Shown here: positions 6,814 to 34,315 of the stretch, piece by piece
Layout of the letters: every line of letters begins with the position of its first letter
Position numbering within the stretch: position 1 is the stretch's first letter
DNA from: Holophagales bacterium UBA2201
GTDB taxonomy: Bacteria > Acidobacteriota > Thermoanaerobaculia > UBA2201
Assembly (NCBI GenBank): GCA_002327305.1
Contig: DCUZ01000019.1
Span: 47,030-81,344, forward strand
Reading direction: 5' to 3'
DNA length: 34,315 bases
The notes under the pieces: model-generated
Seen by the model: the letters and a program-made list of their open reading frames with translations, nothing else
Databases searched by the model: none
Told to the model about the DNA's origin: nothing
Translations under genes and position numbers: made by a program

Positions 6814-6855
6814 ATACAGGCTGAGGGCTTTAGGCTGAAGGTTGAAGGAATAGCT

Positions 6856-8532: not shown

Positions 8533-8625
8533 TGCTTCCTGTTCCTTGTTCCTCGTTCCTCGTTCTTCGTTCCTCGTTCTTCTGCCTTCCTTCTTCATCC
8601 TTCCTCCTTCTACCTTCTTACTTTA
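8533..8625 (+). repeat. pyrimidine-rich tandem heptamer array (about 12 units; cgttcct / cgttctt / ccttctt) in the leader of the radical SAM gene
   Basis: Strict 7-nt periodicity. It is preceded by AT-rich palindromes (agtatact at 8505-8525). Confidence 0.75.
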
Positions 8626-10036: not shown

Positions 10037-10429
10037 ATGTTCCTGCAACTTCTGCTCGTCAATTTCCTGCTGGCCGCGGCGGTTGCCGCGGTGGTGGTGC
10101 TGGTGTTCCGCAAGCCCGTGCGGGCGGTCCTGCACCGCATCATCGGGGAGGAGATCCAGTCCGCCTGGAGCCGCTATGTGATGTTCGCCATCGCCGTCGT
10201 CGGCGTTTCGGGGGGCGTCCGGCTGTGGGAGCTGGGCCGCTACATCACGCCGGATAAAGAGACCGGGAAGGTGCTGGAGCTGACCCACGACCGGTGGGTC
10301 CTGGAGATCTACAGCACCATCGTCGGCGCCCTCCAGGCCGATACCTGGATGCTCCTCGTCTTCTTCCTCTTCGCCCTGATCGCCTTCGTCGTCGTCAAGG
10401 GGTTCGAGCTGAAAAGGCATGCGGGATGA
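10037..10429 (+). CDS. small integral membrane protein (about 3 TM helices), hypothetical
   Basis: RBS aaggagga. Hydrophobic segments LLLVNFLLAAAVAAVVVLVF, VMFAIAVVGV and WMLLVFFLFALIAFVVV. Confidence 0.55.
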   Translation: MFLQLLLVNFLLAAAVAAVVVLVFRKPVRAVLHRIIGEEIQSAWSRYVMFAIAVVGVSGGVRLWELGRYITPDKETGKVLELTHDRWVLEIYSTIVGALQADTWMLLVFFLFALIAFVVVKGFELKRHAG

Positions 10430-10455
10430 ACGGCGCAGTGAATATGCGCCGGTTG

Positions 10456-10483
10456 CGAGTTTAAAGTTTCGAGTTTCGAGTTG
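10456..10483 (-). repeat. GAAAC heptamer array (inverted copy)
   Basis: gagtttaaagtttcgagtttcgag is the reverse complement of ctcgaaactcgaaactttaaactc. It matches the 13996-14035 array almost exactly. Confidence 0.7.
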
Positions 10484-10653
10484 GCGCGGAAGCCATATTT
10501 ATGTGGGGATGTCGCGCAGAGCGGCCGCGGCATTGAGAAACGAATGTCGCGGTCGGTCGAGCGGATGTAATTTCAAATGGACCTTATCAGCGTGATCAAG
10601 GAAGATATTAAACGAACCAAGGCCGATGTGATATCGCTTTCAACCGAGACAAG

Positions 10654-10688
10654 AGGGCGCAGCATGCTGCGCCCCTACGGCATTTTTC
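10654..10688. terminator. perfect 20-bp palindrome gggcgcagcatgctgcgccc plus T-run; likely bidirectional terminator
   Basis: The palindrome is followed by ctacggcatttttcg. A similar element is at 17363-17384. Confidence 0.5.
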
Positions 10689-10693
10689 GTCCT

Positions 10694-10726
10694 GAACTCG
10701 AAATTCGAAACCCGAAACTCGAAACT
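10694..10726 (+). repeat. GAAAC heptamer array (tcgaaat-tcgaaac-ccgaaac-tcgaaac)
   Basis: Tandem 7-mers, inverted relative to 10456-10483. Confidence 0.7.
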
Positions 10727-10734
10727 GGCTGTCG

Positions 10735-12225
10735 CTACAGGGCCTTTTTCACCGCCTTGGCGAAGGTCTCCAGCACCTTGACGCGGGCATGGTTCTTGTC
10801 CACGGCCTCAACGAGGGTCCACGGCGCGTGGGGCGTGGAGGTGCGCTCCACTAGCTCGCCGACGGCGGCCTCGTAGGCGTCCCACTTATTGCGGTTGCGC
10901 CAGTCCTCTTCGGTGATCTTGAACTGCTTCCAGGCGGTCTTCTCCCGCTCCTTGAACCGGCGCAACTGCTCCTCGGGGGAGATGTGGAGGAAAAATTTCT
11001 GCACGATGTAGCCGTGCCGGATCATCGCCTCCTCGAACTCGTTGATCTCCGCGTAGGCCCGTTTCCATTCGTGCTCTTTGGCAAACCCCTCCACCCGCTC
11101 CACCATGACGCGCCCGTACCAGGAGCGGTCGAAGATGACCACGCGGCCCCGGCCGGGGAGGTGGCGCCAGAACCGCCAGAGGTAGTGCTGGGCCCGCTCC
11201 TCCTCGGTGGGGGCGGCGATGGGGATGACCCGGTAGTCGCGGGCGTCAAGGGAGGCCGTGAGGCGGCGGATCGTGCCCCCCTTGCCTCCGGCGTCCCACC
11301 CCTCGAAGACCAGGACGGCGGAGAGGCCCTTGGGTTTGGCCTTGCGCCAGAGGCGGTTGACCCGTCCCTGGACCTCCTCCAGCCGCTCCTTGTATTCCTT
11401 GTCCTCCAGCTTCTTCGTCAGGTCGAGGCGGTCCAGGACGCTGTGGATGCCCTCCCCCAAAGCCCCTTTCTTCCCCGCCCTGGACGCTGTCGCGGCGGCA
11501 GGTTTCGACGGAGGCGCTTCCTGGAGACGGGCGGTGAGCCCCTCCATGATGGTGGTGCCCACGGTCAGCATCTGGTGGCGGCGGTCCTTGGCTTCCACGA
11601 TCGTCCACGGCGCCTCGGCCGTGTGGGTCTCCTGCAGGACCTCCTCGTCGATGGCGCGGAAGTGGTCGTAGAGCTTGTAGTGCTTCCAGTCCGTCTTGGT
11701 CACGCGCCAGGCGGTGCGGGGGTCCGCCTCCAGCGCCTTGAGCCGCTTTTTCTGGTCCTTCTTGGAGAGGTGGAACCAGAACTTGATGAGCAGGACCCCG
11801 TCGTCGGTGAGGGCCTTCTCCAGGAGGCGGATGCGCTCCACCTCCCGCTCCAGGTCCCCCTTCGAGATCTCGTCGTAGGCCCGCTGGAGGATGGGGCGGG
11901 TGTACCAGGAGCAGAAGAAGATCCCCGTGCGCCCCTTGGGCGGCATGGCCAGCCAGTAGCGCCAGTCCTCGGGGCGGCCCCGCTCCTCCCCGGAGCGGGG
12001 GCCGAAGGCGGTGGTCTGCAGAAAGCGGGGGTCCATCCACTCGTGGAGGGTGTTCAGCACCTCCCCCTTGCCCGCCCCGTCGGCCCCGTGGATGAGGATG
12101 AGGACGGGAAAGCGGCGGTCCTTCAACTGCTCCTGCGCCTGCAGAAGCTTGATGCGCAGGTCGGGGACCCGCTTGTCGTACTCTTCCTTGGCAACCTTCA
12201 ACCCCAGCTCCACGGCTTCGAACAT
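10735..12225 (-). CDS. ppk2: two-domain polyphosphate kinase 2 (PPK2 class II, polyphosphate:AMP/NMP phosphotransferase-like)
   Basis: Two PPK2 modules with Walker A HGADGAGKGE and EGWDAGGKGG; about 497 aa. RBS GGAGGTG. Start ATG 12225 (MFEAVELG). Confidence 0.9.
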   Translation of the reverse strand: MFEAVELGLKVAKEEYDKRVPDLRIKLLQAQEQLKDRRFPVLILIHGADGAGKGEVLNTLHEWMDPRFLQTTAFGPRSGEERGRPEDWRYWLAMPPKGRTGIFFCSWYTRPILQRAYDEISKGDLEREVERIRLLEKALTDDGVLLIKFWFHLSKKDQKKRLKALEADPRTAWRVTKTDWKHYKLYDHFRAIDEEVLQETHTAEAPWTIVEAKDRRHQMLTVGTTIMEGLTARLQEAPPSKPAAATASRAGKKGALGEGIHSVLDRLDLTKKLEDKEYKERLEEVQGRVNRLWRKAKPKGLSAVLVFEGWDAGGKGGTIRRLTASLDARDYRVIPIAAPTEEERAQHYLWRFWRHLPGRGRVVIFDRSWYGRVMVERVEGFAKEHEWKRAYAEINEFEEAMIRHGYIVQKFFLHISPEEQLRRFKEREKTAWKQFKITEEDWRNRNKWDAYEAAVGELVERTSTPHAPWTLVEAVDKNHARVKVLETFAKAVKKAL

Positions 12226-12344: not shown

Positions 12345-12722
12345 ATGAACATCATCCAGACCGACAAGGCCCCGGCCGCCATCGGCCCCTACAGCCAGGC
12401 CATCCGGGAAAACCGCTTCGTCTTCACCTCCGGGCAGATCCCCCTCGACCCCGCCACCGGGCAGATGGACAACGCCACCTTCGCCGCCGAGGTGGAGCGG
12501 GTCCTGGCCAACCTGAAGGAGGTGCTCAAGGCCGCCGACTGCCAGATGAAGGATGTGATGAAGACCACCGTGTTCCTCACCGACATGGGGCTCTTCGTCG
12601 AGTTCAACGGCATTTACGAAAAGGCCTTCGGAGGCCACAAGCCAGCCCGCTCCACGGTCCAGGTGGCCGCCCTCCCCAAGGGCGCCCGCATCGAGATCGA
12701 GGCCCTGGCGCTGGTGCCGTAA
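12345..12722 (+). CDS. ridA: RidA/YjgF family reactive-intermediate deaminase
   Basis: MNIIQTDKAPAAIGPYSQA...FVFTSGQIP...ARSTVQVAALPKGARIEIEA; RBS aaaggagga. Confidence 0.9.
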   Translation: MNIIQTDKAPAAIGPYSQAIRENRFVFTSGQIPLDPATGQMDNATFAAEVERVLANLKEVLKAADCQMKDVMKTTVFLTDMGLFVEFNGIYEKAFGGHKPARSTVQVAALPKGARIEIEALALVP

Positions 12723-12845
12723 CGGCCGGAAAGCGGAAAGGCGGGAATGCCGGAAGGCTCCCCCGCCCCATGCGAGGCCGTTCGGCGTACGGCGTTCAGC
12801 GAAGCTGCCCCTGGGGGCAGGAGCGTACCCAGAAAGGAGTTGGGA

Positions 12846-13886: not shown

Positions 13887-13995
13887 CCGCGGCCCGATCG
13901 ACGCATATCGCTCAGCGCGTTGCAGCCCTTCCGGCTTGCACATGGCCAAAATGCCGATTCTTATTACGATTCTGACGGGAACCGGTAGGGCGGGG

Positions 13996-14035
13996 GAACT
14001 CGAAACTTTAAACTCGAAACTCTAGACTTGTTTCT
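13996..14035 (+). repeat. GAAAC heptamer array (tcgaaac-tttaaac-tcgaaac-tctagac-ttgtttc)
   Basis: Lies 10 bp upstream of the C-tract-flanked promoter. Confidence 0.7.
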
Positions 14036-14044
14036 ATCCCCCCC

Positions 14045-14073
14045 TTGACACCCCCCCCGGGGGGGAATAAAAT
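14045..14073 (+). promoter_or_regulatory. consensus-like promoter cccccTTGACAcccccccc-N17-TAAAAT driving the Fe-S operon
   Basis: The -35 is embedded in poly-C tracts; the spacer is 17 bp. Confidence 0.5.
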
Positions 14074-14204
14074 GGACGGGAGAGGCCTTATTTACTTGAA
14101 ATGGTTAAACTTAACCCTGCCAGGGGCGTCCTCCCGGGGAAACCTGAGGCGAGGAGGGGGGAGGGGGGGCAGGAAGAGGAAAAATCCACTCGATCGGAAC
14201 CCTC

Positions 14205-15368
14205 ATGGAAGTGTATCTGGACCTGGAAAACGCCACCCCCCTGCCGGAGCCCGTCCTCAAGGCGATGCTCCCCTATTTCGGCGCCCGCGCCTACGGCCAC
14301 TCGGCGCTGACCCACCGGATCGGATGGGAGGCCTACGCCGCCGTGGAGGAGTCGCTCGGGCGTCTGGCCCTGGCCCTCGGCGTCCCGCCCGAGGACCTGG
14401 CGCTGACCCACGACGCCGTCGAGGCCGCCAACCTCGCCTTCGAGGGGCTGATCCTGGGACGGCCGATCAAGCGGAAAACGGTGGTCCTCTCGTCCATCGA
14501 GCCGCTGAACATCCTGTACGCGGCGGAGAACCTGGAGCGGCACGGCTTCCGCGTCGTGAAGGTCCCCGTGGACGGCGAGGGGTTCGTCCGGGAGGACGCC
14601 CTGGCCGAGGCCTGCACGGAGGACACCCACAGCGTCGCCGTCTCCTGGGTCAGCCACGAGATCGGGACGATCCAGCGCCTCGACCGCCTCTCCGCCATCG
14701 TGAGGGAACGGGCCCCCGAGGCCTACTTCATCTCCGACCTCTCCGACGCCTTCGGCCGCCTCGCCTTCGAGGGGTCGGCCCTGCCCATCGACATCGGCCT
14801 GGTCACCTCCTACAAGGTCTTCGGCCCCCGGGGCGCCGCGGCCCTCTTCAAGGGCAAGCGGGCCAAATTGAAACCCCTCCTCGCCGGCCCCTACAGCACC
14901 CAGCCGCTGTGGCCGGGCGACGAGAACCTCCCCCTCCTGGTGGGTTTCGCCGAGGCCGCTGAACGGGCGATGGCGGAGCTGAGCGCCCGGACGGCCCACA
15001 TGCGCCGCCTGCGCGACCGGCTCGTCGAAGGACTCCTGGCCATCCCGCACACGATGCTGAACGGCCCACGGACGGAACGGGCCCCCGACAACGCCAACAT
15101 CTCCTTTCTCGGAGCCGAGGGGGAGGCCATCACGGTGGAGTGCTCCGACCATGGGGTCTACGTTTCCTCGGGCTCGGCCTGCACCCGCCGGATGCTCCAG
15201 CCCAGCCATGTCCTCCTCGCCATCGGCCGGAAGTACGAGGCGGCCCACGGCTCCATCCTGATGAAGATCTCCCCCTTCCACACCGACGCCGACATCGACC
15301 ACGTCCTGAAAATCTTCCCGGAGGCCATCGAGCGCCTGCGGAAACTTTCCGGCTTCAAGGAGGCATAG
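14205..15368 (+). CDS. class I (NifS/IscS-like) cysteine desulfurase homolog with an atypical PLP motif
   Basis: Active-site loop SSGSACT is present, but the PLP lysine context is TSYKVFGP (Tyr in place of the usual SGHK His). Confidence 0.8.
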   Translation: MEVYLDLENATPLPEPVLKAMLPYFGARAYGHSALTHRIGWEAYAAVEESLGRLALALGVPPEDLALTHDAVEAANLAFEGLILGRPIKRKTVVLSSIEPLNILYAAENLERHGFRVVKVPVDGEGFVREDALAEACTEDTHSVAVSWVSHEIGTIQRLDRLSAIVRERAPEAYFISDLSDAFGRLAFEGSALPIDIGLVTSYKVFGPRGAAALFKGKRAKLKPLLAGPYSTQPLWPGDENLPLLVGFAEAAERAMAELSARTAHMRRLRDRLVEGLLAIPHTMLNGPRTERAPDNANISFLGAEGEAITVECSDHGVYVSSGSACTRRMLQPSHVLLAIGRKYEAAHGSILMKISPFHTDADIDHVLKIFPEAIERLRKLSGFKEA

Positions 15369-17083: not shown

Positions 17084-17352
17084 GCTGGCAGAATTACGTC
17101 GGGCACATCGACGACACCTGCGGGCAGGAGAAGGATTTCATCCTCCTCCTCAAGCCGGAGAAAAAAGGGGAGGCGATCGCCCGCATCCGGGCGGTCATGA
17201 CGGTGGATCGCCGGATCGGGGACATCATGCTCCAGGGGACCCTTCTCGGGACGGAAGCCACCTTCTTCTGCAACGGGAAGCTGATCCTGAAGGGGCTGGG
17301 CAGCCGGGAGAACCTGGAACGCTTCCTGGATTCATTGTTCCCGGCTTCTTAG
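17080..17352 (+). CDS. 90-aa hypothetical protein translationally coupled to sufS
   Basis: ATGA overlap. The N-terminus MSWQNYV..C resembles a profilin N-terminus, but the protein is too short for that call. Confidence 0.45.
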   Translation: MSWQNYVGHIDDTCGQEKDFILLLKPEKKGEAIARIRAVMTVDRRIGDIMLQGTLLGTEATFFCNGKLILKGLGSRENLERFLDSLFPAS

Positions 17353-17362
17353 GCCTCGGTTG

Positions 17363-17384
17363 TGGGGCGCGGCATGCAGCGCCC
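17363..17384 (+). terminator. near-palindrome ggggcgcggcatgcagcgcccc (same family as 10654)
   Basis: GCATGC-centred GC-rich inverted repeat after the gene end, followed by AT-rich sequence. Confidence 0.4.
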
Positions 17385-23440: not shown

Positions 23441-23613
23441 GGTGGCTGATGGTTGAACGAAAATACCGCACCCCCGTCCCCGCTCCGAAATCATAAATCC
23501 GAAATCCGATATTCCATATCGAACGAAAATACCGCACCTTAAAAGGTGCGGCTACATCCCCCTACTTCAACGCTCCAACGGCGCGAGAACCGCGCACCCT
23601 GAAGGGTGCGGCC
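23441..23613. repeat. cluster of related GC-rich hairpins (REP-like) plus terminator
   Basis: gtgcggagcgggg ... ccccgctccg; two copies of gaacgaaaataccgcacc; hairpins ccgcacc-ttaaaa-ggtgcgg and ccgcgcaccc-tgaa-gggtgcggcc. Confidence 0.6.
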
Positions 23614-23731
23614 GCATTCCACCCTCCCAACGCTCCCCTGCGCCGCCCCGTATCGCAGGGTGTGACGACACACAACCCGGGATTGATGATGGATGTCACA
23701 AATCTTGAATGAACGAATTTTGGAGGAATGT

Positions 23732-28425: not shown

Positions 28426-28575
28426 GCGTAGAGGGCCAGGCCGGGATGGTTTCTTTGTAGGGGCACCGCATGCTGTGCCCTTGCGGTGGTAAGAGCGAGC
28501 CGCCCTCTCCCGATCAGTCTATGAAAGAGGCGCTTCACGGCAAGGACTTCCAGGCGTAGAGGGCCAGCGCGGCCC
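28420..28575. repeat. 28-bp direct repeat of the cdsA 3' terminus flanking a 100-bp insert between cdsA and dxr
   Basis: acttccaggcgtagagggccagcgcggcc (28548-28575) versus acttccacgcgtagagggccaggccggg (28420-28447). The 28407..29120 ORF reuses the CdsA C-terminus YAWKSLP. Confidence 0.7.
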
Positions 28576-30049: not shown

Positions 30050-30080
30050 ACTTTGAACCTGAAACCTGGAACTTGAAACT
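30050..30080 (+). repeat. GAAAC heptamer array (ctgaaac-ctggaac-ttgaaac)
   Basis: Same repeat family as 13996 and 10694; lies 34 bp upstream of a C-tract-flanked -35. Confidence 0.65.
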
Positions 30081-30114
30081 GGGCGGGAGGTAGCGCGGAA
30101 TATCCCCCCCCGCC

Positions 30115-30146
30115 TTGACACGCCCCCCCGTCTGCGTTACTATAAT
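30115..30146 (+). promoter_or_regulatory. consensus promoter cccccccccgccTTGACAcgccccccc ... TACTATAAT upstream of the flotillin gene
   Basis: -35 TTGACA in a poly-C context; -10 TACTAT (17 bp) or TATAAT (20 bp). Confidence 0.5.
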
Positions 30147-30251: not shown

Positions 30252-31643
30252 ATGTTGACTTGGGTCATTATCATCCTGGCCGCCGTAGCGGTCGTCGCCA
30301 TTCTCATCGCCTTCCTCACCAAGCAGTATAAGAAGGTCGCCCCCAACCAGGTGCTCGTCGTCTCCGGCGGGGCGAAATACACCCTCACCGGCCCCGACGG
30401 CGCCACCAAGCAGGTGGGATACCGCCTCCGCGTGGGTGGCGGCGCCTTCATCAACCCCTTCACCGAGAAGGCCGAGACGATGACCCTCGAGGTCATCTCT
30501 GTGACGATCAAGACCCCCGAAGTGCTCTCCGGCGAGGGGGTCCCGCTGGTGGCCGAGGCGACCGCCCAGGTGCGCATCGACACCGCCGACTACCCGCTGG
30601 CCCTGGCCGTGGAGCAGTTCCTTGGCTCCGGCGCCGAGGGGATCCGCCAGGTCTCCGAGACCATCCTCGAGGGGGCCGTCCGCGCCGTCATCGGCCAGAT
30701 GAAGGTGGAGGAGGTCTACAAGGACCGCATGGGGTTCGCCGAGCGCGTCGGGGACATGGTGGAGGACGACTTCGCCCGCATGGGCCTCCAGATGGTCTCC
30801 TTCGCCCTCAAGGACGTCTCCGACACCCAGGGCTACCTCGACGCCCTGGCCAAGCCCAAGATCGCCGCGGTGAAGCTGGCCGCCCAGGTGGCGCAGGCCG
30901 AGGCCGACCGCGACGCCGCCATCCAGACCGCCGAGGCCCGCAAGCAGGCCGAGATCGCCCGCCTGGCCGCCGAGGCCGTCATCGCCGGCAAGTCGTGGGA
31001 GAACGAGGGGAAGAAGGCCGATTCACAGGTGGCCGTCAACACCAAGAAGGCCCACGCCGACATGTCCTACGAACTGGAGCGCAACAAGATCGCCCAGGCG
31101 CTGAAAAAGGAGGAGCACGCGGTCAAGATGATGGACAAGGACAACGCCATCAAGCTCGAGGAGCTCGAGGTGGTGCGCCGCCAGAAGGAATTGGAGTCCT
31201 CCGTCATCAAGCCGGCCGACGCCCGCAAGTACCAGATCCAGGCCGAGGCCGAGGCCGAGTCGTTCCGCCTCTCCGCCGAGGCCAAGGGGAAGGCCGAAGC
31301 CAAACGGGTGCAGGCCGAGGTGGACGCCGCCTCGGTCAAGCAGATGGGGACGGCCGAGGCCTCCGCCATCGCCGAGAAGGGCAAGGCCTACGCGCAGTAC
31401 AGCCAGGCCGCCGTCACCAAGATGATGGTGGACATGATGCCCGAGATGGCCAAGGCCGTGGCCGAGCCCCTCTCCCGCGTGGAGAAGGTGGTCCTCATCG
31501 GCAGCGACGGCAAGACCGGCGCCGGCAAGCTCACGGGGCAGGTGGCCGAGGTGATGGCCCAGATCCCCGAGGTGGTGGAAGCGGTCTCCGGCATCGACCT
31601 CAAGAAGATCCTGAAGGAAAAATTCTCCGGCGGCAAGGAATAG
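30252..31643 (+). CDS. flotillin / SPFH-domain membrane scaffold protein
   Basis: N-terminal TM helix, SPFH domain, long Ala/Glu/Lys-rich coiled-coil C-terminus. RBS AGGAGG. Confidence 0.85.
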   Translation: MLTWVIIILAAVAVVAILIAFLTKQYKKVAPNQVLVVSGGAKYTLTGPDGATKQVGYRLRVGGGAFINPFTEKAETMTLEVISVTIKTPEVLSGEGVPLVAEATAQVRIDTADYPLALAVEQFLGSGAEGIRQVSETILEGAVRAVIGQMKVEEVYKDRMGFAERVGDMVEDDFARMGLQMVSFALKDVSDTQGYLDALAKPKIAAVKLAAQVAQAEADRDAAIQTAEARKQAEIARLAAEAVIAGKSWENEGKKADSQVAVNTKKAHADMSYELERNKIAQALKKEEHAVKMMDKDNAIKLEELEVVRRQKELESSVIKPADARKYQIQAEAEAESFRLSAEAKGKAEAKRVQAEVDAASVKQMGTAEASAIAEKGKAYAQYSQAAVTKMMVDMMPEMAKAVAEPLSRVEKVVLIGSDGKTGAGKLTGQVAEVMAQIPEVVEAVSGIDLKKILKEKFSGGKE

Positions 31644-34013: not shown

Positions 34014-34056
34014 CGTGAGAGAAAATGCCCACAGCAATCGTCCTGTGTTTATTCTG

Positions 34057-34140
34057 TCCGGCTTTCCGGCTTTCCCGCGTTCCCGCGTTCCCGCTTTCCC
34101 GCCTTCCAGCCTTCTAGCCTTCCAGCCTTCTAGCCTTCCC
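34057..34140 (+). repeat. pyrimidine-rich tandem heptamer array (YTTCC core) in the leader of the downstream gene
   Basis: ccggctt-tccggct-ttcccgc-gttcccg-cgttccc-gctttcc-cgccttc-cagcctt-ctagcct-tccagcc-ttctagc-cttcccg. Confidence 0.75.
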
Positions 34141-34150
34141 GAGGTGACCC

Positions 34151-34315
34151 ATGGCCGGTGATATTTTCAACTTGGAAGCCTACAAGCAATTCGTCGAGGC
34201 CCTGGGCCCGGCCCTGCAAGGTCCCAACATCCGCCACGTGGACCAGGACTGGCTGGAACCGCGGGCGCGGGAGTTCGGGACCCGGACCAAGTACGGCTCC
34301 TACGGCTGGCGCTCC
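34151..34315 (+). CDS. 5' fragment of a hypothetical protein; continues past the window end
   Basis: ATG 34151 (MAGDIFNLEAYKQFVEALGP...), open to the window end; preceded by the heptamer array. Confidence 0.4.
   Translation, partial: MAGDIFNLEAYKQFVEALGPALQGPNIRHVDQDWLEPRAREFGTRTKYGSYGWRS

Follow-up and report, generated by a model that had tools for sequence, protein, structure and literature searches.

The window analyzed here, a stretch of 34,315 nucleotides from Holophagales bacterium UBA2201, carries four arrays of YYGAAAC heptamers, designated A to D [Table 1]. All four were scored by TRF as tandem repeats of period 7 (3.4–4.6 copies). Searched with at most one mismatch, the two-unit string GAAACNNGAAAC returned 11 matches where dinucleotide-preserving shuffles returned 1.22 ± 1.0, the largest shuffled count being 4. 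The arrays announced by the original prediction are thus present. Arrays A and B lie 3′ of the stop codons of two convergent genes. Array A, whose plus-strand letters read GTTGCGA GTTTAAA GTTTCGA GTTTCGA GTTGG, is directed at the stop codon (10427–10429) of a gene for a 130-residue membrane protein (10037–10429), 22 nt away, and array B at that of PPK2 (minus strand, 10735–10737), 9 nt away. Array C is directed toward a nifS-like gene (ATG at 14205) and has an Aminotran_5/NifU_N/Aminotran_5 operon downstream; among named homologues, the NifS-like protein is closest (52% identity) to one from a Thermoanaerobaculia (Acidobacteriota) genome. Array D, finally, sits in the divergent spacer between uppS and the gene of a Band_7 protein, named flotillin in one source, toward which it points (ATG at 30252). 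These domains agree with the Fe-S operon and the flotillin gene that had been named as downstream genes. No tRNA was found in the window, and an Rfam search of it returned nothing at gathering thresholds or at E ≤ 1.

Table 1 Coordinates of repeat arrays, putative promoters and palindromic elements in the window.
Feature	Position	Strand	Description
Heptamer array (AGGCTGA)n	6818–6848		Unrelated unit; 4 nt past a stop codon; C>G reading into that gene
Heptamer array (TTCCTCG)n	8536–8623	+	About 12 units; leader of a radical-SAM gene (ATG 8644); C>G toward the gene
Hairpin CGGCGCA-GTGAATA-TGCGCCG	10431–10451	+	Between stop codon and array A; conserved stem and variable loop in L259
Array A	10452–10483	−	Four to five YYGAAAC units on the minus strand
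Palindrome GGGCGCAGCATGCTGCGCCC + T-run	10655–10687		Perfect; terminator-like core between arrays A and B
Array B	10691–10725	+	Five units: CCTGAAC TCGAAAT TCGAAAC CCGAAAC TCGAAAC
Octamer array (GCGGAAAG)n	12715–12758		Starts at the RidA stop codon
Array C	13993–14034	+	Good units GGGGAAC TCGAAAC TTTAAAC TCGAAAC; degenerate units TCTAGAC TTGTTTC
Putative promoter C	14038–14073	+	C7-TTGACA(14045–14050)-C8G7AA-TAAAAT(14068–14073)
Variant array (CCGAAAT)n	23484–23509	+	CCGAAAT CATAAAT CCGAAAT CCGATAT; toward the gene starting at 23693
Array D	30052–30079	+	Four units: TTTGAAC CTGAAAC CTGGAAC TTGAAAC
Putative promoter D	30104–30146	+	C8GCC-TTGACA(30115–30120)-CGC7-...TACTAT(30138–30143)
Octamer arrays (TTCCCGCK/TTCCAGCC)n	34057–34141	+	End 11 nt 5′ of the ATG at 34153

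As had also been claimed, two of the arrays, C and D, are located upstream of near-consensus TTGACA promoters whose −35 boxes are flanked by C tracts. Promoter C matches the sigma-70 consensus at 11 of 12 positions, with a 17-nt spacer that holds a C8G7 palindrome, and the TACTAT of promoter D overlaps a perfect TATAAT at 30141–30146. From these letters, both look like genuine strong sigma-70 promoters with predicted starts. C occupies 15 and 14 of the 16 positions flanking the −35 boxes of promoters C and D, respectively, compared to 3–7 of 16 at five other TTGACA sites in the window. The idea that poly-C tracts are a genome-wide peculiarity was discarded, the 52 C/G homopolymer runs of the whole window being what chance provides (64.6 ± 8.2 expected). 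Metagenome promoters of the "ctgcgcgtatcttatct" type were entertained as orthologues of the flotillin promoter and dismissed, as tblastn found no flotillin there.

The original prediction went further and read array and promoter as a shared cassette. The array would then be a double-stranded DNA platform for an activator, or a UP-like element contacted by the alpha-CTD, boosting the C-flanked promoters of the Fe-S operon and of the flotillin gene. In line with this reading, arrays C and D are upstream of, and directed at, the two best promoters of the window; like UP elements and class I sites, they are placed ahead of a strong promoter's −35 box, and their A+T content is relatively high for a genome with 67% G+C. 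Measured from the −35 box, the unit positions of D are by our own count those of C shifted by exactly 11 bp, or one helical turn, so that the two arrays may share a phase. Their distances to the box are unequal, array C being 24 nt away when measured from its last good unit (9–10 nt counting the degenerate units) and array D 35 nt away, so that the arrays would end at about −60 and −73 from the predicted transcription starts. Unlike UP elements, both arrays fall outside the −40 to −60 zone and lack an A/T-tract consensus, and the −40 to −60 zone of promoter D is itself G+C-rich.

Nor were the arrays conserved together with the promoters. Promoter C is kept as cccccTTGACGccccc-N-TAAAAT, along with the early leader GCCTTATTTACTTG.AATG, in a relative (L257/L258) whose NifS-like protein is 89% identical, and the site of array C is there occupied by a single GCGAACTC in place of the six units of the window. 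Promoter D is 100% conserved over ~45 nt, C-tract through −10 box, in L129–L131 (87–92% nucleotide identity), whereas array D is not alignable there and is represented by an unrecognizable remnant, CCTGGAA TTTGCAT TTTGAAG, with 25 nt missing. As promoter C is retained where its array is missing, and promoter D where its array has decayed, neither array is an obligatory part of its promoter. Most arrays of the organism, besides, are found at gene ends: arrays A and B follow stop codons and a consensus scan found no promoter beside them, and none of the five GAAAC-type arrays located just beyond the window precedes a gene start. Among cross-phylum loci of more than 50% G+C, a sigma-70-like promoter was found within 100 nt downstream of only 6 of 88 GAAAC arrays; so low a share tells against a cassette, even if it is a slight excess over controls (0–3) on the activator side. 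None of 103 C-flanked TTGACA sites collected from metagenomes was accompanied by a GAAAC array. Heptamer arrays of other units lay upstream of five of these 103 promoters and downstream of none, a further point on the activator side. Arrays of this kind are seen before promoters in L138, L155 and L144 and, by our own reading, at L259:792–831, and may thus have a sequence-independent upstream role. Against a sequence-specific factor, the strand rule described below extends to unrelated units; and in other taxa the arrays typically leave 7–11 nt before the ATG, where there is no room for a promoter. An activator or UP-like function of the arrays is accordingly improbable and the cassette is not supported by these comparisons; the arrays are probably independent of the promoters, and the C-flanked promoters are best read as a separate feature. 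The units were also considered as −35 boxes of ECF sigma factors (GGAAC/TGAAAC) and rejected, as no CGT-type −10, expected 16–17 nt past the AAC, follows any of the four arrays by our own reading and the 7–11 nt left before the ATG in other taxa are again too few.

Arrays A and B together make up an outward-pointing inverted pair. The palindrome between them is one copy of a REP-like family with other copies at 17365 and 28461, so that a separate REP-like palindrome coexists with the arrays in this genome. A mobile element had been offered in the original prediction as the alternative source of the arrays, and A and B would in that case be the terminal inverted repeats of a MITE inserted between the two convergent genes. 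Indeed, the inverted arms flank a 222-bp segment of lower G+C and pair with each other in the predicted minimum-free-energy fold of 10430–10734 (−126 kcal/mol, z = −5.2). BLAST of the window and of the A–B region against all fetched loci, however, matched only arrays, and no other copy of the internal segment was found in the window or in these loci. A diverged relative (L259), further, has array A alone at the orthologous site, array B and the core being absent, and the cores between paired arrays are unrelated in other genomes, ranging from overlapping arms to 222 nt, with only 5 of 16 tested cores strongly structured. A MITE origin of the pair is thus very unlikely. The latter count likewise led us to reject the idea that the arrays always bracket terminators. 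Strict upkeep of a hairpin was set aside as well: cognate arms match at 63% of their variable positions compared to 50% for non-cognate arms (z = 4.4), a difference that is well below what a conserved stem would show and that is confounded by the unit preferences of individual taxa. The arrays thus resemble REP/BIME elements in being dispersed, intergenic, often 3′ of genes and, when paired, able to form long hairpins, and differ from them in that their arms are tandem heptamers with this 63% match and not a unique imperfect palindrome. As single-stranded RNA, the canonical GAAAC units are unstructured (0 kcal/mol fold), while five copies of the GAAACTC unit of the window fold to −5.6/−10.9 kcal/mol. 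A structure-free spacer was considered as a selected property and rejected, GAAACCT, GAAACTT and TAACTGA being extreme for their composition and GAAACTC and most others not.

The GAAAC arrays of the window account for part of the period-7/8 arrays that fill the spacers of this organism. TRF identified nine period-7/8 loci with at least three copies, all nine of them intergenic even though spacers account for only ~11% of the window. One of these, the CCGAAAT array [Table 1], differs from the GAAAC unit by one base and represents a fifth locus of the family in the window; the four loci other than this one and arrays A–D are built on other heptamers and octamers. None of these five additional loci had been mentioned in the original prediction. 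Five further GAAAC-type arrays occur within 7 kb beyond the window, bringing the dispersed unit to five loci in the window and five in the next 7 kb. Three of the latter lie 9–20 nt from a stop codon and the other two, at 107 and 114 nt, stand behind another array. A near-identical copy of array C was found at L001:17275.

The same family was found at no fewer than 120 loci from Flavobacterium, Acidobacteriota, Desulfobacterales, Planctomycetota, Verrucomicrobiota and others; gene calls in the fetched loci relied on a crude heuristic combining ORFs with codon-position GC. Complete annotated genomes with such arrays include those of Desulfonema magnum (CP061800) and Ca. Desulfobacillus denitrificans (AP021857). 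GAAAC arrays pile up 7–11 nt 5′ of ATGs and 0–12 nt 3′ of stop codons. A gene is found at 20 nt or less in front of 65 arrays, but at 20 nt or less behind only ten. Among inverted pairs, the arrangement was outward-pointing (GTTTC...GAAAC) in 38 cases and the opposite in 6, or 37:5 when one window pair and one artefact were left out (p = 4e-7). Across all loci, period-7/8 arrays were intergenic in 384 of 438 cases. The genes downstream of GAAAC arrays share no common function, and a literature search with the repeat strings returned no bacterial matches. Two further ideas were examined and rejected. Circularization of mRNAs through complementary 5′ and 3′ arrays would require both at one gene, yet of 45 genes preceded by an array just 1 was also followed by one. 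Provision of stop codons in all frames, as the selected property, was dismissed since TCGAAAC units have no stop on either strand and it is the stop-free strand that comes after the genes' own stop codons.

The orientation of the arrays obeys a rule that is common to unrelated units and holds at gene starts and gene ends alike: the strand reading toward the adjacent gene is richer in C than in G. This was the case for GAAAC-like arrays at 81:13 and for period-7/8 arrays of other units at 83:23 (p = 4e-9), the latter count breaking down into 32:6 at starts and 51:17 at stops, and all nine arrays of the window conform to it by our own base counts. Array-free flanks displayed no C/G skew (401:402 and 329:373), and A/T skew followed no such rule (50:55). 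Mutation biases linked to replication or transcription predict opposite signs of the skew at starts and stops; the sign being the same at both, we infer that what fixes the orientation is selection on single strands, in all probability those of nascent RNA, as opposed to a sequence-specific activator of double-stranded DNA. Whether the arrays as a whole are under a strand-specific constraint, or serve a function, at the level of the transcript is a proposition that we hold with confidence evenly divided.

Comparison of relatives revealed arrays that are stable in the population and turn over between species. Array C was identical in four other assemblies that differ from the window at 0.25–1% of positions, array D was identical in L001–L005, and no array differed among the four or five independent assemblies in which it could be compared; the assemblies spanning A, B and D match the window at 99.7–100%. 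This absence of length polymorphism weighs against the arrays being contingency repeats whose copy number switches adjacent genes, as do their imperfect units, their location outside reading frames and −35/−10 spacers, and the housekeeping nature of the adjacent genes. Short tandem repeats near promoters are known phase-variation switches in some pathogens (PMC12721329, PMC4692102), and such a role is extremely improbable here. At larger distances, the site of array A stands out: the array is 28/32 (88%) identical to its ortholog in L259, where the adjacent protein is 77% identical and the next 77 nt are unalignable. Other arrays come and go. The spacer holding the octamer arrays at 34057–34141 measures 139 nt in the window and 2 nt in L129, and no 7/8-mer array was found in the 11-kb locus of the latter.

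Turnover of this kind would be expected of functionless repeats that are generated by slippage wherever the spacer tolerates them, their orientation reflecting the removal of harmful orientations. Several observations speak for such an origin. Unrelated units coexist in the window genome and in its relatives, gains and losses of arrays separate close relatives whose adjacent genes and promoters are unchanged, a seed unit is found where array C is missing, the downstream genes have no function in common, and the excess of heptamers in bacterial genomes has been attributed to polymerase slippage (PMC4692102). Against it, one and the same GAAAC unit recurs in distant phyla, and the directional statistics are very strong and missing from array-free flanks. 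Arrays are also found at the same genes in two pairs of Flavobacterium species (at rpoN in L014 and L111, and at two genes in L021 and L076), and no simple harm came to light that would bar one orientation from starts as well as stops. The conservation of array A at 88% beside an unalignable spacer counts against functionless repeats too and suggests a role more specific than a compositional one, a point that also weighs on the transcript-level reading preferred below. We therefore see functionless repeats as a possible but rather doubtful account of the arrays.

The arrays have head-to-tail units, are non-coding, occur at dispersed loci and are non-randomly oriented, and we are confident that they belong to the class of bacterial intergenic heptanucleotide repeats. 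The closest precedent is provided by the TAACTGA heptamers of marine Beggiatoaceae, cyanobacteria and some Bacteroidetes, which are found just upstream of start codons devoid of a ribosome-binding site (MacGregor 2015, PMC4679880). Like GAAAC, TAACTGA forms head-to-tail arrays of 2–6 units, longer in some taxa, that are almost wholly intergenic and present at many dispersed loci per genome. Both have a marked forward orientation toward start codons, often where there is no ribosome-binding site (a minority of TAACTGA arrays being at stops), both are unstructured as RNA in either orientation, and both have a patchy cross-phylum distribution with downstream genes of no common function. TAACTGA differs in its unit sequence, in which C equals G; GAAAC arrays border stop codons as commonly as start codons and form inverted pairs (38:6) where a single inverted repeat is reported for TAACTGA, and no array of the window abuts a start codon. 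Other relatives of the class are the STRR heptamers of cyanobacteria (CCCCAGT, TTGGTCA, CAACAGT) and the heptamer excess described in bacteria (Mazel 1990 and Mrazek 2007, as cited in PMC4692102). The STRR repeats and the window arrays are alike in being non-coding tandem heptamers, in comprising several unit families per genome and in the slippage origin proposed for them, and STRR repeats differ in having been reported from other taxa. The GGGAATC repeats of Xanthomonas (Rehm 2015, PMC4692102) share with GAAAC arrays their intergenic location, a size of mostly four units, the occurrence of some inverted pairs on opposite strands, and variation in length and sequence at the same spacer between related species, but are G-rich, quadruplex-prone and confined to one genus, GAAAC units having no G-tract. 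The over-representation of heptamers in bacterial genomes has been known since 2007, with STRR, TAACTGA and GGGAATC described case by case. For STRR heptamers, we know of no rule that ties orientation to genes, and found none in the searchable literature.

Altogether, the reading that best accounts for the GAAAC arrays is that of a dispersed, orientation-constrained family of intergenic tandem repeats; with the transcript-level mechanism set out below included, it has in our judgment about an equal chance of being right or wrong. Arrays would arise by slippage-type expansion of a seed unit, such as the single GAACTC found where the window has array C, and the units inside an array would then evolve in concert. 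RNA running from the spacer into the gene would carry the repeat in its C>G form, poorly structured in the commonest units and less so for the TCGA-containing unit. In arrays A and B, near stop codons, and in arrays C and D, ahead of promoters, the repeat could favor loading of Rho, which would end read-through or antisense transcripts short of the neighboring gene or its promoter. Arrays abutting a start codon, as seen in other taxa and nowhere in the window, would instead act as leaders from which translation starts with no need of a Shine-Dalgarno sequence.

What defines a rut site is a C>G skew together with low structure and YC dimers at intervals (PMC6144790), here taken as about 60–80 nt of unstructured RNA with YC dimers ~10–14 nt apart, and the Rho hexamer has six primary sites covering ~58–61 nt, or 10 nt per protomer. 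The arrays resemble rut sites in their C>G skew (the 81:13 and 83:23 above), in the YC dimers of most units, in the low structure of the commonest GAAAC units and in their placement where untranslated RNA would enter a gene. They are unlike rut sites in size and period. With 3–6 units, or 21–42 nt, they fall far below the ~60 nt contacted by the hexamer and are too short for six primary sites; the YC dimer recurs every 7 nt, or every 14 nt via alternate units, so that the 7-nt unit matches the spacing of Rho only by alternate units, and GAAACTT units are without a YC dimer. Cyanobacteria are not known to have Rho, and heptamer arrays nonetheless abound in them. As for arrays C and D, they are nearer the gene behind than the gene they point at, and array D has no obvious source of incoming transcription. 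Rho as the specific effector is therefore a tentative proposal that we believe more likely to prove wrong than right. Similarly speculative, and rather unlikely as a whole, is the generalization that period-7/8 arrays, of which the GAAAC family is the most widespread example, constitute a polar "gene-entry" signal general to bacteria, acting on nascent RNA as compact Rho-loading pads and as Shine-Dalgarno-free landing pads for ribosomes.

A different reader of the RNA may be envisaged. The arrays would in this case be bound as single-stranded RNA by an abundant OB-fold protein, for instance ribosomal protein S1 or one with a cold-shock domain, that covers ~7 nt and organizes leaders and 3′ ends. 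Cold-shock proteins bind ~6–7 nt of pyrimidine-rich single strand. The strict period of 7–8 nt, the lack of structure of canonical units and the fact that arrays take the place of the Shine-Dalgarno region in other taxa are all consistent with such a protein, and S1, Csp or CsrA were proposed by MacGregor for the TAACTGA repeats (PMC4679880). On the other hand, arrays at 5′ and 3′ borders expose opposite strands in the common transcript, and one protein cannot read both; unit sequences differ widely; and transcription is predicted to start only downstream of arrays C and D. We give this reading a small chance only, and retain the orientation-constrained repeat family described above as the best explanation.

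With regard to annotation, these results teach that the presence of an array near a promoter is not by itself the mark of a transcription-factor site. The C-tract-flanked −35 box, for its part, seems to recur as a style of promoter among environmental bacteria. The window led to a further heptamer family, GAAAC, common to Bacteroidota, Acidobacteriota, Desulfobacterota, Planctomycetota and others. It also led to the rule that arrays of unrelated sequence present C over G toward the adjacent gene, which leads to the testable hypothesis that such arrays may insulate genes at the level of the transcript.

Sequence inspection in the YYGAAAC register found all four tandem heptamer arrays of the original prediction (arrays A to D; see table), and Tandem Repeats Finder (TRF) assigned a period of 7 to each of them. 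A two-unit YYGAAAC pattern allowing at most one mismatch matched 11 times in the window versus 1.2 expected. All nine period-7/8 loci with at least three copies detected by TRF were intergenic, intergenic DNA making up ~11% of the window. Arrays A and B lie in the spacer between two convergent genes: array A begins 22 nt past the stop codon of the gene for a 130-aa membrane protein, with a small hairpin in between, and array B ends 9 nt short of the stop codon of PPK2, which lies on the other strand. Read in sense from either gene, the order is stop codon, (GTTTCGA)n, and then a core, common to both, that contains a terminator-like palindrome. A consensus scan found no promoter near these two arrays; folded as one RNA, the 305-nt spacer is predicted to pair A with B (-126 kcal/mol, z = -5.2). 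Arrays C and D aim at the start codons of the nifS-like and flotillin genes, 184 and 172 nt off, with promoters C and D intervening.

Repeat arrays, promoters and palindromes located in the window and in locus L001
Feature	Position	Strand	Description
Array A	10452-10483	minus	four to five units
Array B	10691-10725		five units
Array C	13993-14034		four good and two degenerate units
Array D	30052-30079		four units
Fifth array	23484-23509		unit CCGAAAT, one-base variant
Promoter C	14045-14073		TTGACA-N17-TAAAAT
Promoter D	30115-30146		TTGACA-N17-TACTAT, overlapping a TATAAT
AGGCTGA array	6818-6848		intergenic; C>G on strand facing nearest gene border
TTCCTCG array	8536-8623		intergenic, 12 units; C>G on strand facing nearest gene border
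GCGGAAAG array	12715-12758		intergenic; C>G on strand facing nearest gene border
TTCCCGCK/TTCCAGCC arrays	34057-34141		intergenic; C>G on strand facing nearest gene border
GGGCRCNGCATGCTGYGCCC palindrome	10655-10674		terminator-like; core separating array A from array B
GGGCRCNGCATGCTGYGCCC palindrome	17365-17384		
GGGCRCNGCATGCTGYGCCC palindrome	28461-28480		
GGGCRCNGCATGCTGYGCCC palindrome	L001, about 17208-17232		

Over the 7 kb beyond the window's right-hand edge (L001), five further GAAAC-type arrays were found, and none of the five stands ahead of a gene start. Array C has a near-identical copy here, GGGAACTCGAAACTTTAAACTTGAAACTCGAAAC, whose end is 9 nt away from the rubrerythrin stop codon; two arrays start 18-20 nt past the ThyX and PEPCK stop codons, and the last two, each behind another array, are 107 and 114 nt away from a stop codon. 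The gene-dense 6.6 kb to the left of the window held no GAAAC-type arrays. The REP-like palindrome GGGCRCNGCATGCTGYGCCC, perfect or near-perfect and often followed by CTACG, recurs in spacers with 6 strand-matches versus 0.01 expected, and two copies of cgaacgaaaataccgcacc, another small spacer repeat, adjoin the CCGAAAT array (23455-23640), and each copy has a short hairpin (gcacc...ggtgc) after it. The 12 TTCCTCG units take up the whole leader of a radical-SAM gene, repeating an anti-Shine-Dalgarno-like CCUC ahead of a GGAGG ribosome-binding site. Arrays A and C have in common with L001:17275 and L089:1446-1478, the latter from an unrelated low-G+C metagenome-assembled genome, the sub-motif GAACTCGAAACTTTAAACTYGAAAC with a TTTAAAC variant unit, a hint of either inter-locus copying or a preferred variant unit.

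The two near-consensus promoters, each TTGACA with an N17 spacer, were present as predicted, and so was their poly-C context: C occupies 15/16 and 14/16 positions flanking the -35 boxes of promoters C and D, and 3-7/16 at the other five TTGACA sites in the window. C/G homopolymer runs over the whole window are at chance level, and the C flanks are thus a local feature of these promoters. The proposed target genes were likewise in place, with a NifS-like/NifU/NifS operon downstream of promoter C and a Band_7 flotillin gene downstream of promoter D. The spacer of promoter C (14051-14065) is almost entirely C8G7, a loop-less palindrome between -35 and -10 that is cut to ccccctgtcccgggg in a relative with an 89% identical protein. 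The nifS-like leader (14074-14204) opens with an A+T-rich box, GCCTTATTTACTTGAAATGGTTAAACTTAACC, kept in a relative (L257:4868-5000), and holds a G-rich tract, GGAGGGGGGAGGGGGGG (14153-14169). Because an Rrf2-family regulator gene is the first in the operon of a more distant relative (L259), GCCTTATTTACTTGAAATGGTTAAACTTAACC may be an Rrf2/IscR-type operator.

A metagenome scan for CCCNCCTTGACACNCCCCC gave at least 108 distinct contexts, and among the matches listed C-tract-flanked TTGACA boxes were common in diverse contigs (L137-L256). A -10 box (at least 4/6 matches, A2 and T6 required) lay at 16-18 nt in 39% of the 108 listed contexts versus 2% at control offsets, so that many of these sites are real promoters of the C-flanked style. 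This suggests that the C-flanked -35 is a recurrent promoter style in diverse organisms. None of the 103 listed contexts with enough upstream sequence had a GAAAC array. Period-7 arrays of other units (CACTGTC, AACTGAC, GCTGATC) lay within 100 nt upstream in five of the same 103, four of these being orthologues of a single promoter; period-7 arrays were found downstream in none, and arrays of any other period in at most one. C-flanked promoters are a feature separate from GAAAC arrays. The C-flanked promoter containing ctgcgcgtatcttatct precedes a ~330-nt conserved non-coding leader (L138, L202, L241, L155, L197) that has no match in Rfam; in L241 it is followed by an ORF that, read by eye, we take to be YajC. 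Upstream of this promoter, inverted pairs of CACTGTC- or AACTGAC-type arrays bracket a spacer; the orthologue in L197 has no heptamer arrays upstream.

Searching one genome per species for exact matches to three GAAACYY units yielded at least 120 loci, those listed coming from Flavobacterium and Acidobacteriota (many each), Bacteroidales, Desulfobacterales, Planctomycetota, Verrucomicrobiota, a Leptolyngbya and others. Orientation and position were scored for the 202 arrays in the listed loci, with genes called by an ORF and codon-position-GC heuristic. Among these matches, inverted pairs pointed outward (GTTTC...GAAAC) in 38 cases versus 6 of the opposite kind, or 37:5 (p = 4e-7) after removal of the window's own pair (A/B) from the 38 and, from the 6, of one case that was only the gap separating two proper pairs. 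Sixty-five of the 202 arrays lay within 20 nt of the gene in front versus 10 that were as close to the gene behind, an asymmetry that is internally controlled, the fine details of the gene-call heuristic being immaterial. In the listed loci, arrays pile up 7-11 nt before ATG codons, without a Shine-Dalgarno sequence, and again 0-12 nt past stop codons, there as (GTTTCAR)n in gene sense. The genes that the pre-ATG arrays point at encode housekeeping proteins, recognised from their N-termini, among them presumably ribosomal protein S9, MnmA, FolD, PurB, TsaD, TrpA and RpoN. A sigma-70-like promoter lay within 100 nt downstream of 6/88 arrays in listed loci above 50% G+C, the window's two being the best. 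Different Flavobacterium species carry GAAAC arrays directly upstream of the same genes, which by N-termini read by eye we take to be rpoN (L014/L111) and a DsbA-like gene with its neighbour (L021/L076); copy number differs between these counterparts, and position is thus conserved while length turns over.

TRF was run on all non-redundant fetched loci, and intergenic period-7/8 arrays within 40 nt of one gene border were retained. On the strand reading toward the gene, C exceeded G in 81/94 GAAAC-like arrays and also in 83/106 arrays of non-GAAAC units (p = 4e-9; 32:6 at starts, 51:17 at stops), the latter ratio being ~75:19 by our own count without duplicated loci and GAAAC-like units missed by the filter. 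The rule is valid in low-, mid- and high-G+C loci and, by our own base counts, for 9/9 period-7/8 arrays in the window. There was no corresponding A/T rule (50:55), no C>G in array-free 40-nt flanks (401:402 at starts, 329:373 at stops), and no trend in the small samples at periods 5-6 or 9-12. Under a replication- or transcription-linked mutation bias, starts and stops should differ in sign; the C>G rule is symmetric at both, which points to selection or a process itself symmetric about the spacer. A purely non-functional origin by slippage with orientation filtering is a serious rival, albeit one we hold to be unlikely.

Four or five independent assemblies carry each window array unchanged; overall, 0.25-1% of positions differ from the window in the assemblies that cover array C, and the assemblies covering arrays A, B and D are 99.7-100% identical to it. 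There is thus no sign of copy-number switching. Between relatives the arrays turn over. Promoter D and its leader are kept almost base-for-base at 87-92% nucleotide identity (L129-L131), and the array D region is unalignable there (CCTGGAA TTTGCAT TTTGAAG, 25 nt shorter). The 139-nt aminotransferase/PEPCK spacer (34014-34152), mostly octamer arrays, has a 2-nt counterpart (TGAccATG, L129:6763-6764) in the ~90% identical relative, a clean case of lineage-specific spacer expansion by arrays. L257/L258, whose NifS-like protein is 89% identical, keep cccccTTGACGccccc...TAAAAT and the early leader of promoter C; upstream of the C-tract they have only GCGAACTC in place of array C, apparently the seed of the array's expansion, and no 7/8-mer arrays were found in the 11-kb locus. 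In L259 (adjacent protein 77% identical), the hairpin and array A are retained, with 28/32 positions identical, and the next 77 nt are unalignable. Array A is old, unlike arrays C and D, and its conservation suggests a role more specific than composition, a point against the Rho model considered below. Both its GTTTCGA units are GTCTCGA in L259, a parallel change that indicates concerted evolution. Further heptamer and octamer arrays occur in L259, including the window's TTCCCGCG unit.

The original prediction is confirmed as an observation and partly supported as an interpretation: its promoters look genuine, and the arrays are unlikely to be an activator module for them. A sequence-specific dsDNA activator fails to explain the stop-codon arrays, the ATG-abutting arrays and the rule in unrelated units. 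What all arrays have in common is strand composition, a property relevant to single strands. RNA running from the spacer into the gene would bear a C>G repeat; canonical GAAAC units are predicted to fold to 0 kcal/mol as RNA, and the accepted descriptors of Rho utilisation (rut) sites are a skew of C over G, little secondary structure and YC dimers set at intervals (PMC6144790). In our working model, the arrays would bias gene-entering RNA toward Rho loading, the target being read-through from the convergent neighbour at arrays A and B, read-through reaching a promoter at array C, and antisense RNA entering the 3' end of a gene. An ATG-abutting array would instead double as a G-poor leader for Shine-Dalgarno-free translation initiation, in line with MacGregor's argument on TAACTGA repeats (PMC4679880). 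Against Rho, the arrays span only 21-42 nt versus the 58-61 nt contacted by the hexamer (10 nt per protomer), GAAACTT units have no YC dimer, five copies of the window's GAAACTC unit fold to -5.6/-10.9 kcal/mol, and array D has no obvious incoming transcript. To our knowledge, cyanobacteria lack Rho and yet are rich in heptamer arrays, which also counts against it. We regard a transcript-level constraint or function of the arrays as evenly poised, and Rho specifically as a rather improbable mechanism.

GAAAC arrays belong to a known class of heptamer repeats that includes TAACTGA repeats, cyanobacterial STRRs and Xanthomonas GGGAATC repeats. The closest described system, the TAACTGA family, resembles them in unit length, intergenic restriction, unstructured RNA, patchy cross-phylum distribution and forward orientation beside start codons without a ribosome-binding site; GGGAATC repeats share the inverted pairs and the turnover between species. 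GAAAC repeat strings in a bacterial context were not found in the literature searched, where the class of arrays close to stop codons, the 38:6 polarity of inverted pairs and a C>G rule that holds whatever the unit also appear undescribed. The main interest lies in the general directional rule to which the arrays led.
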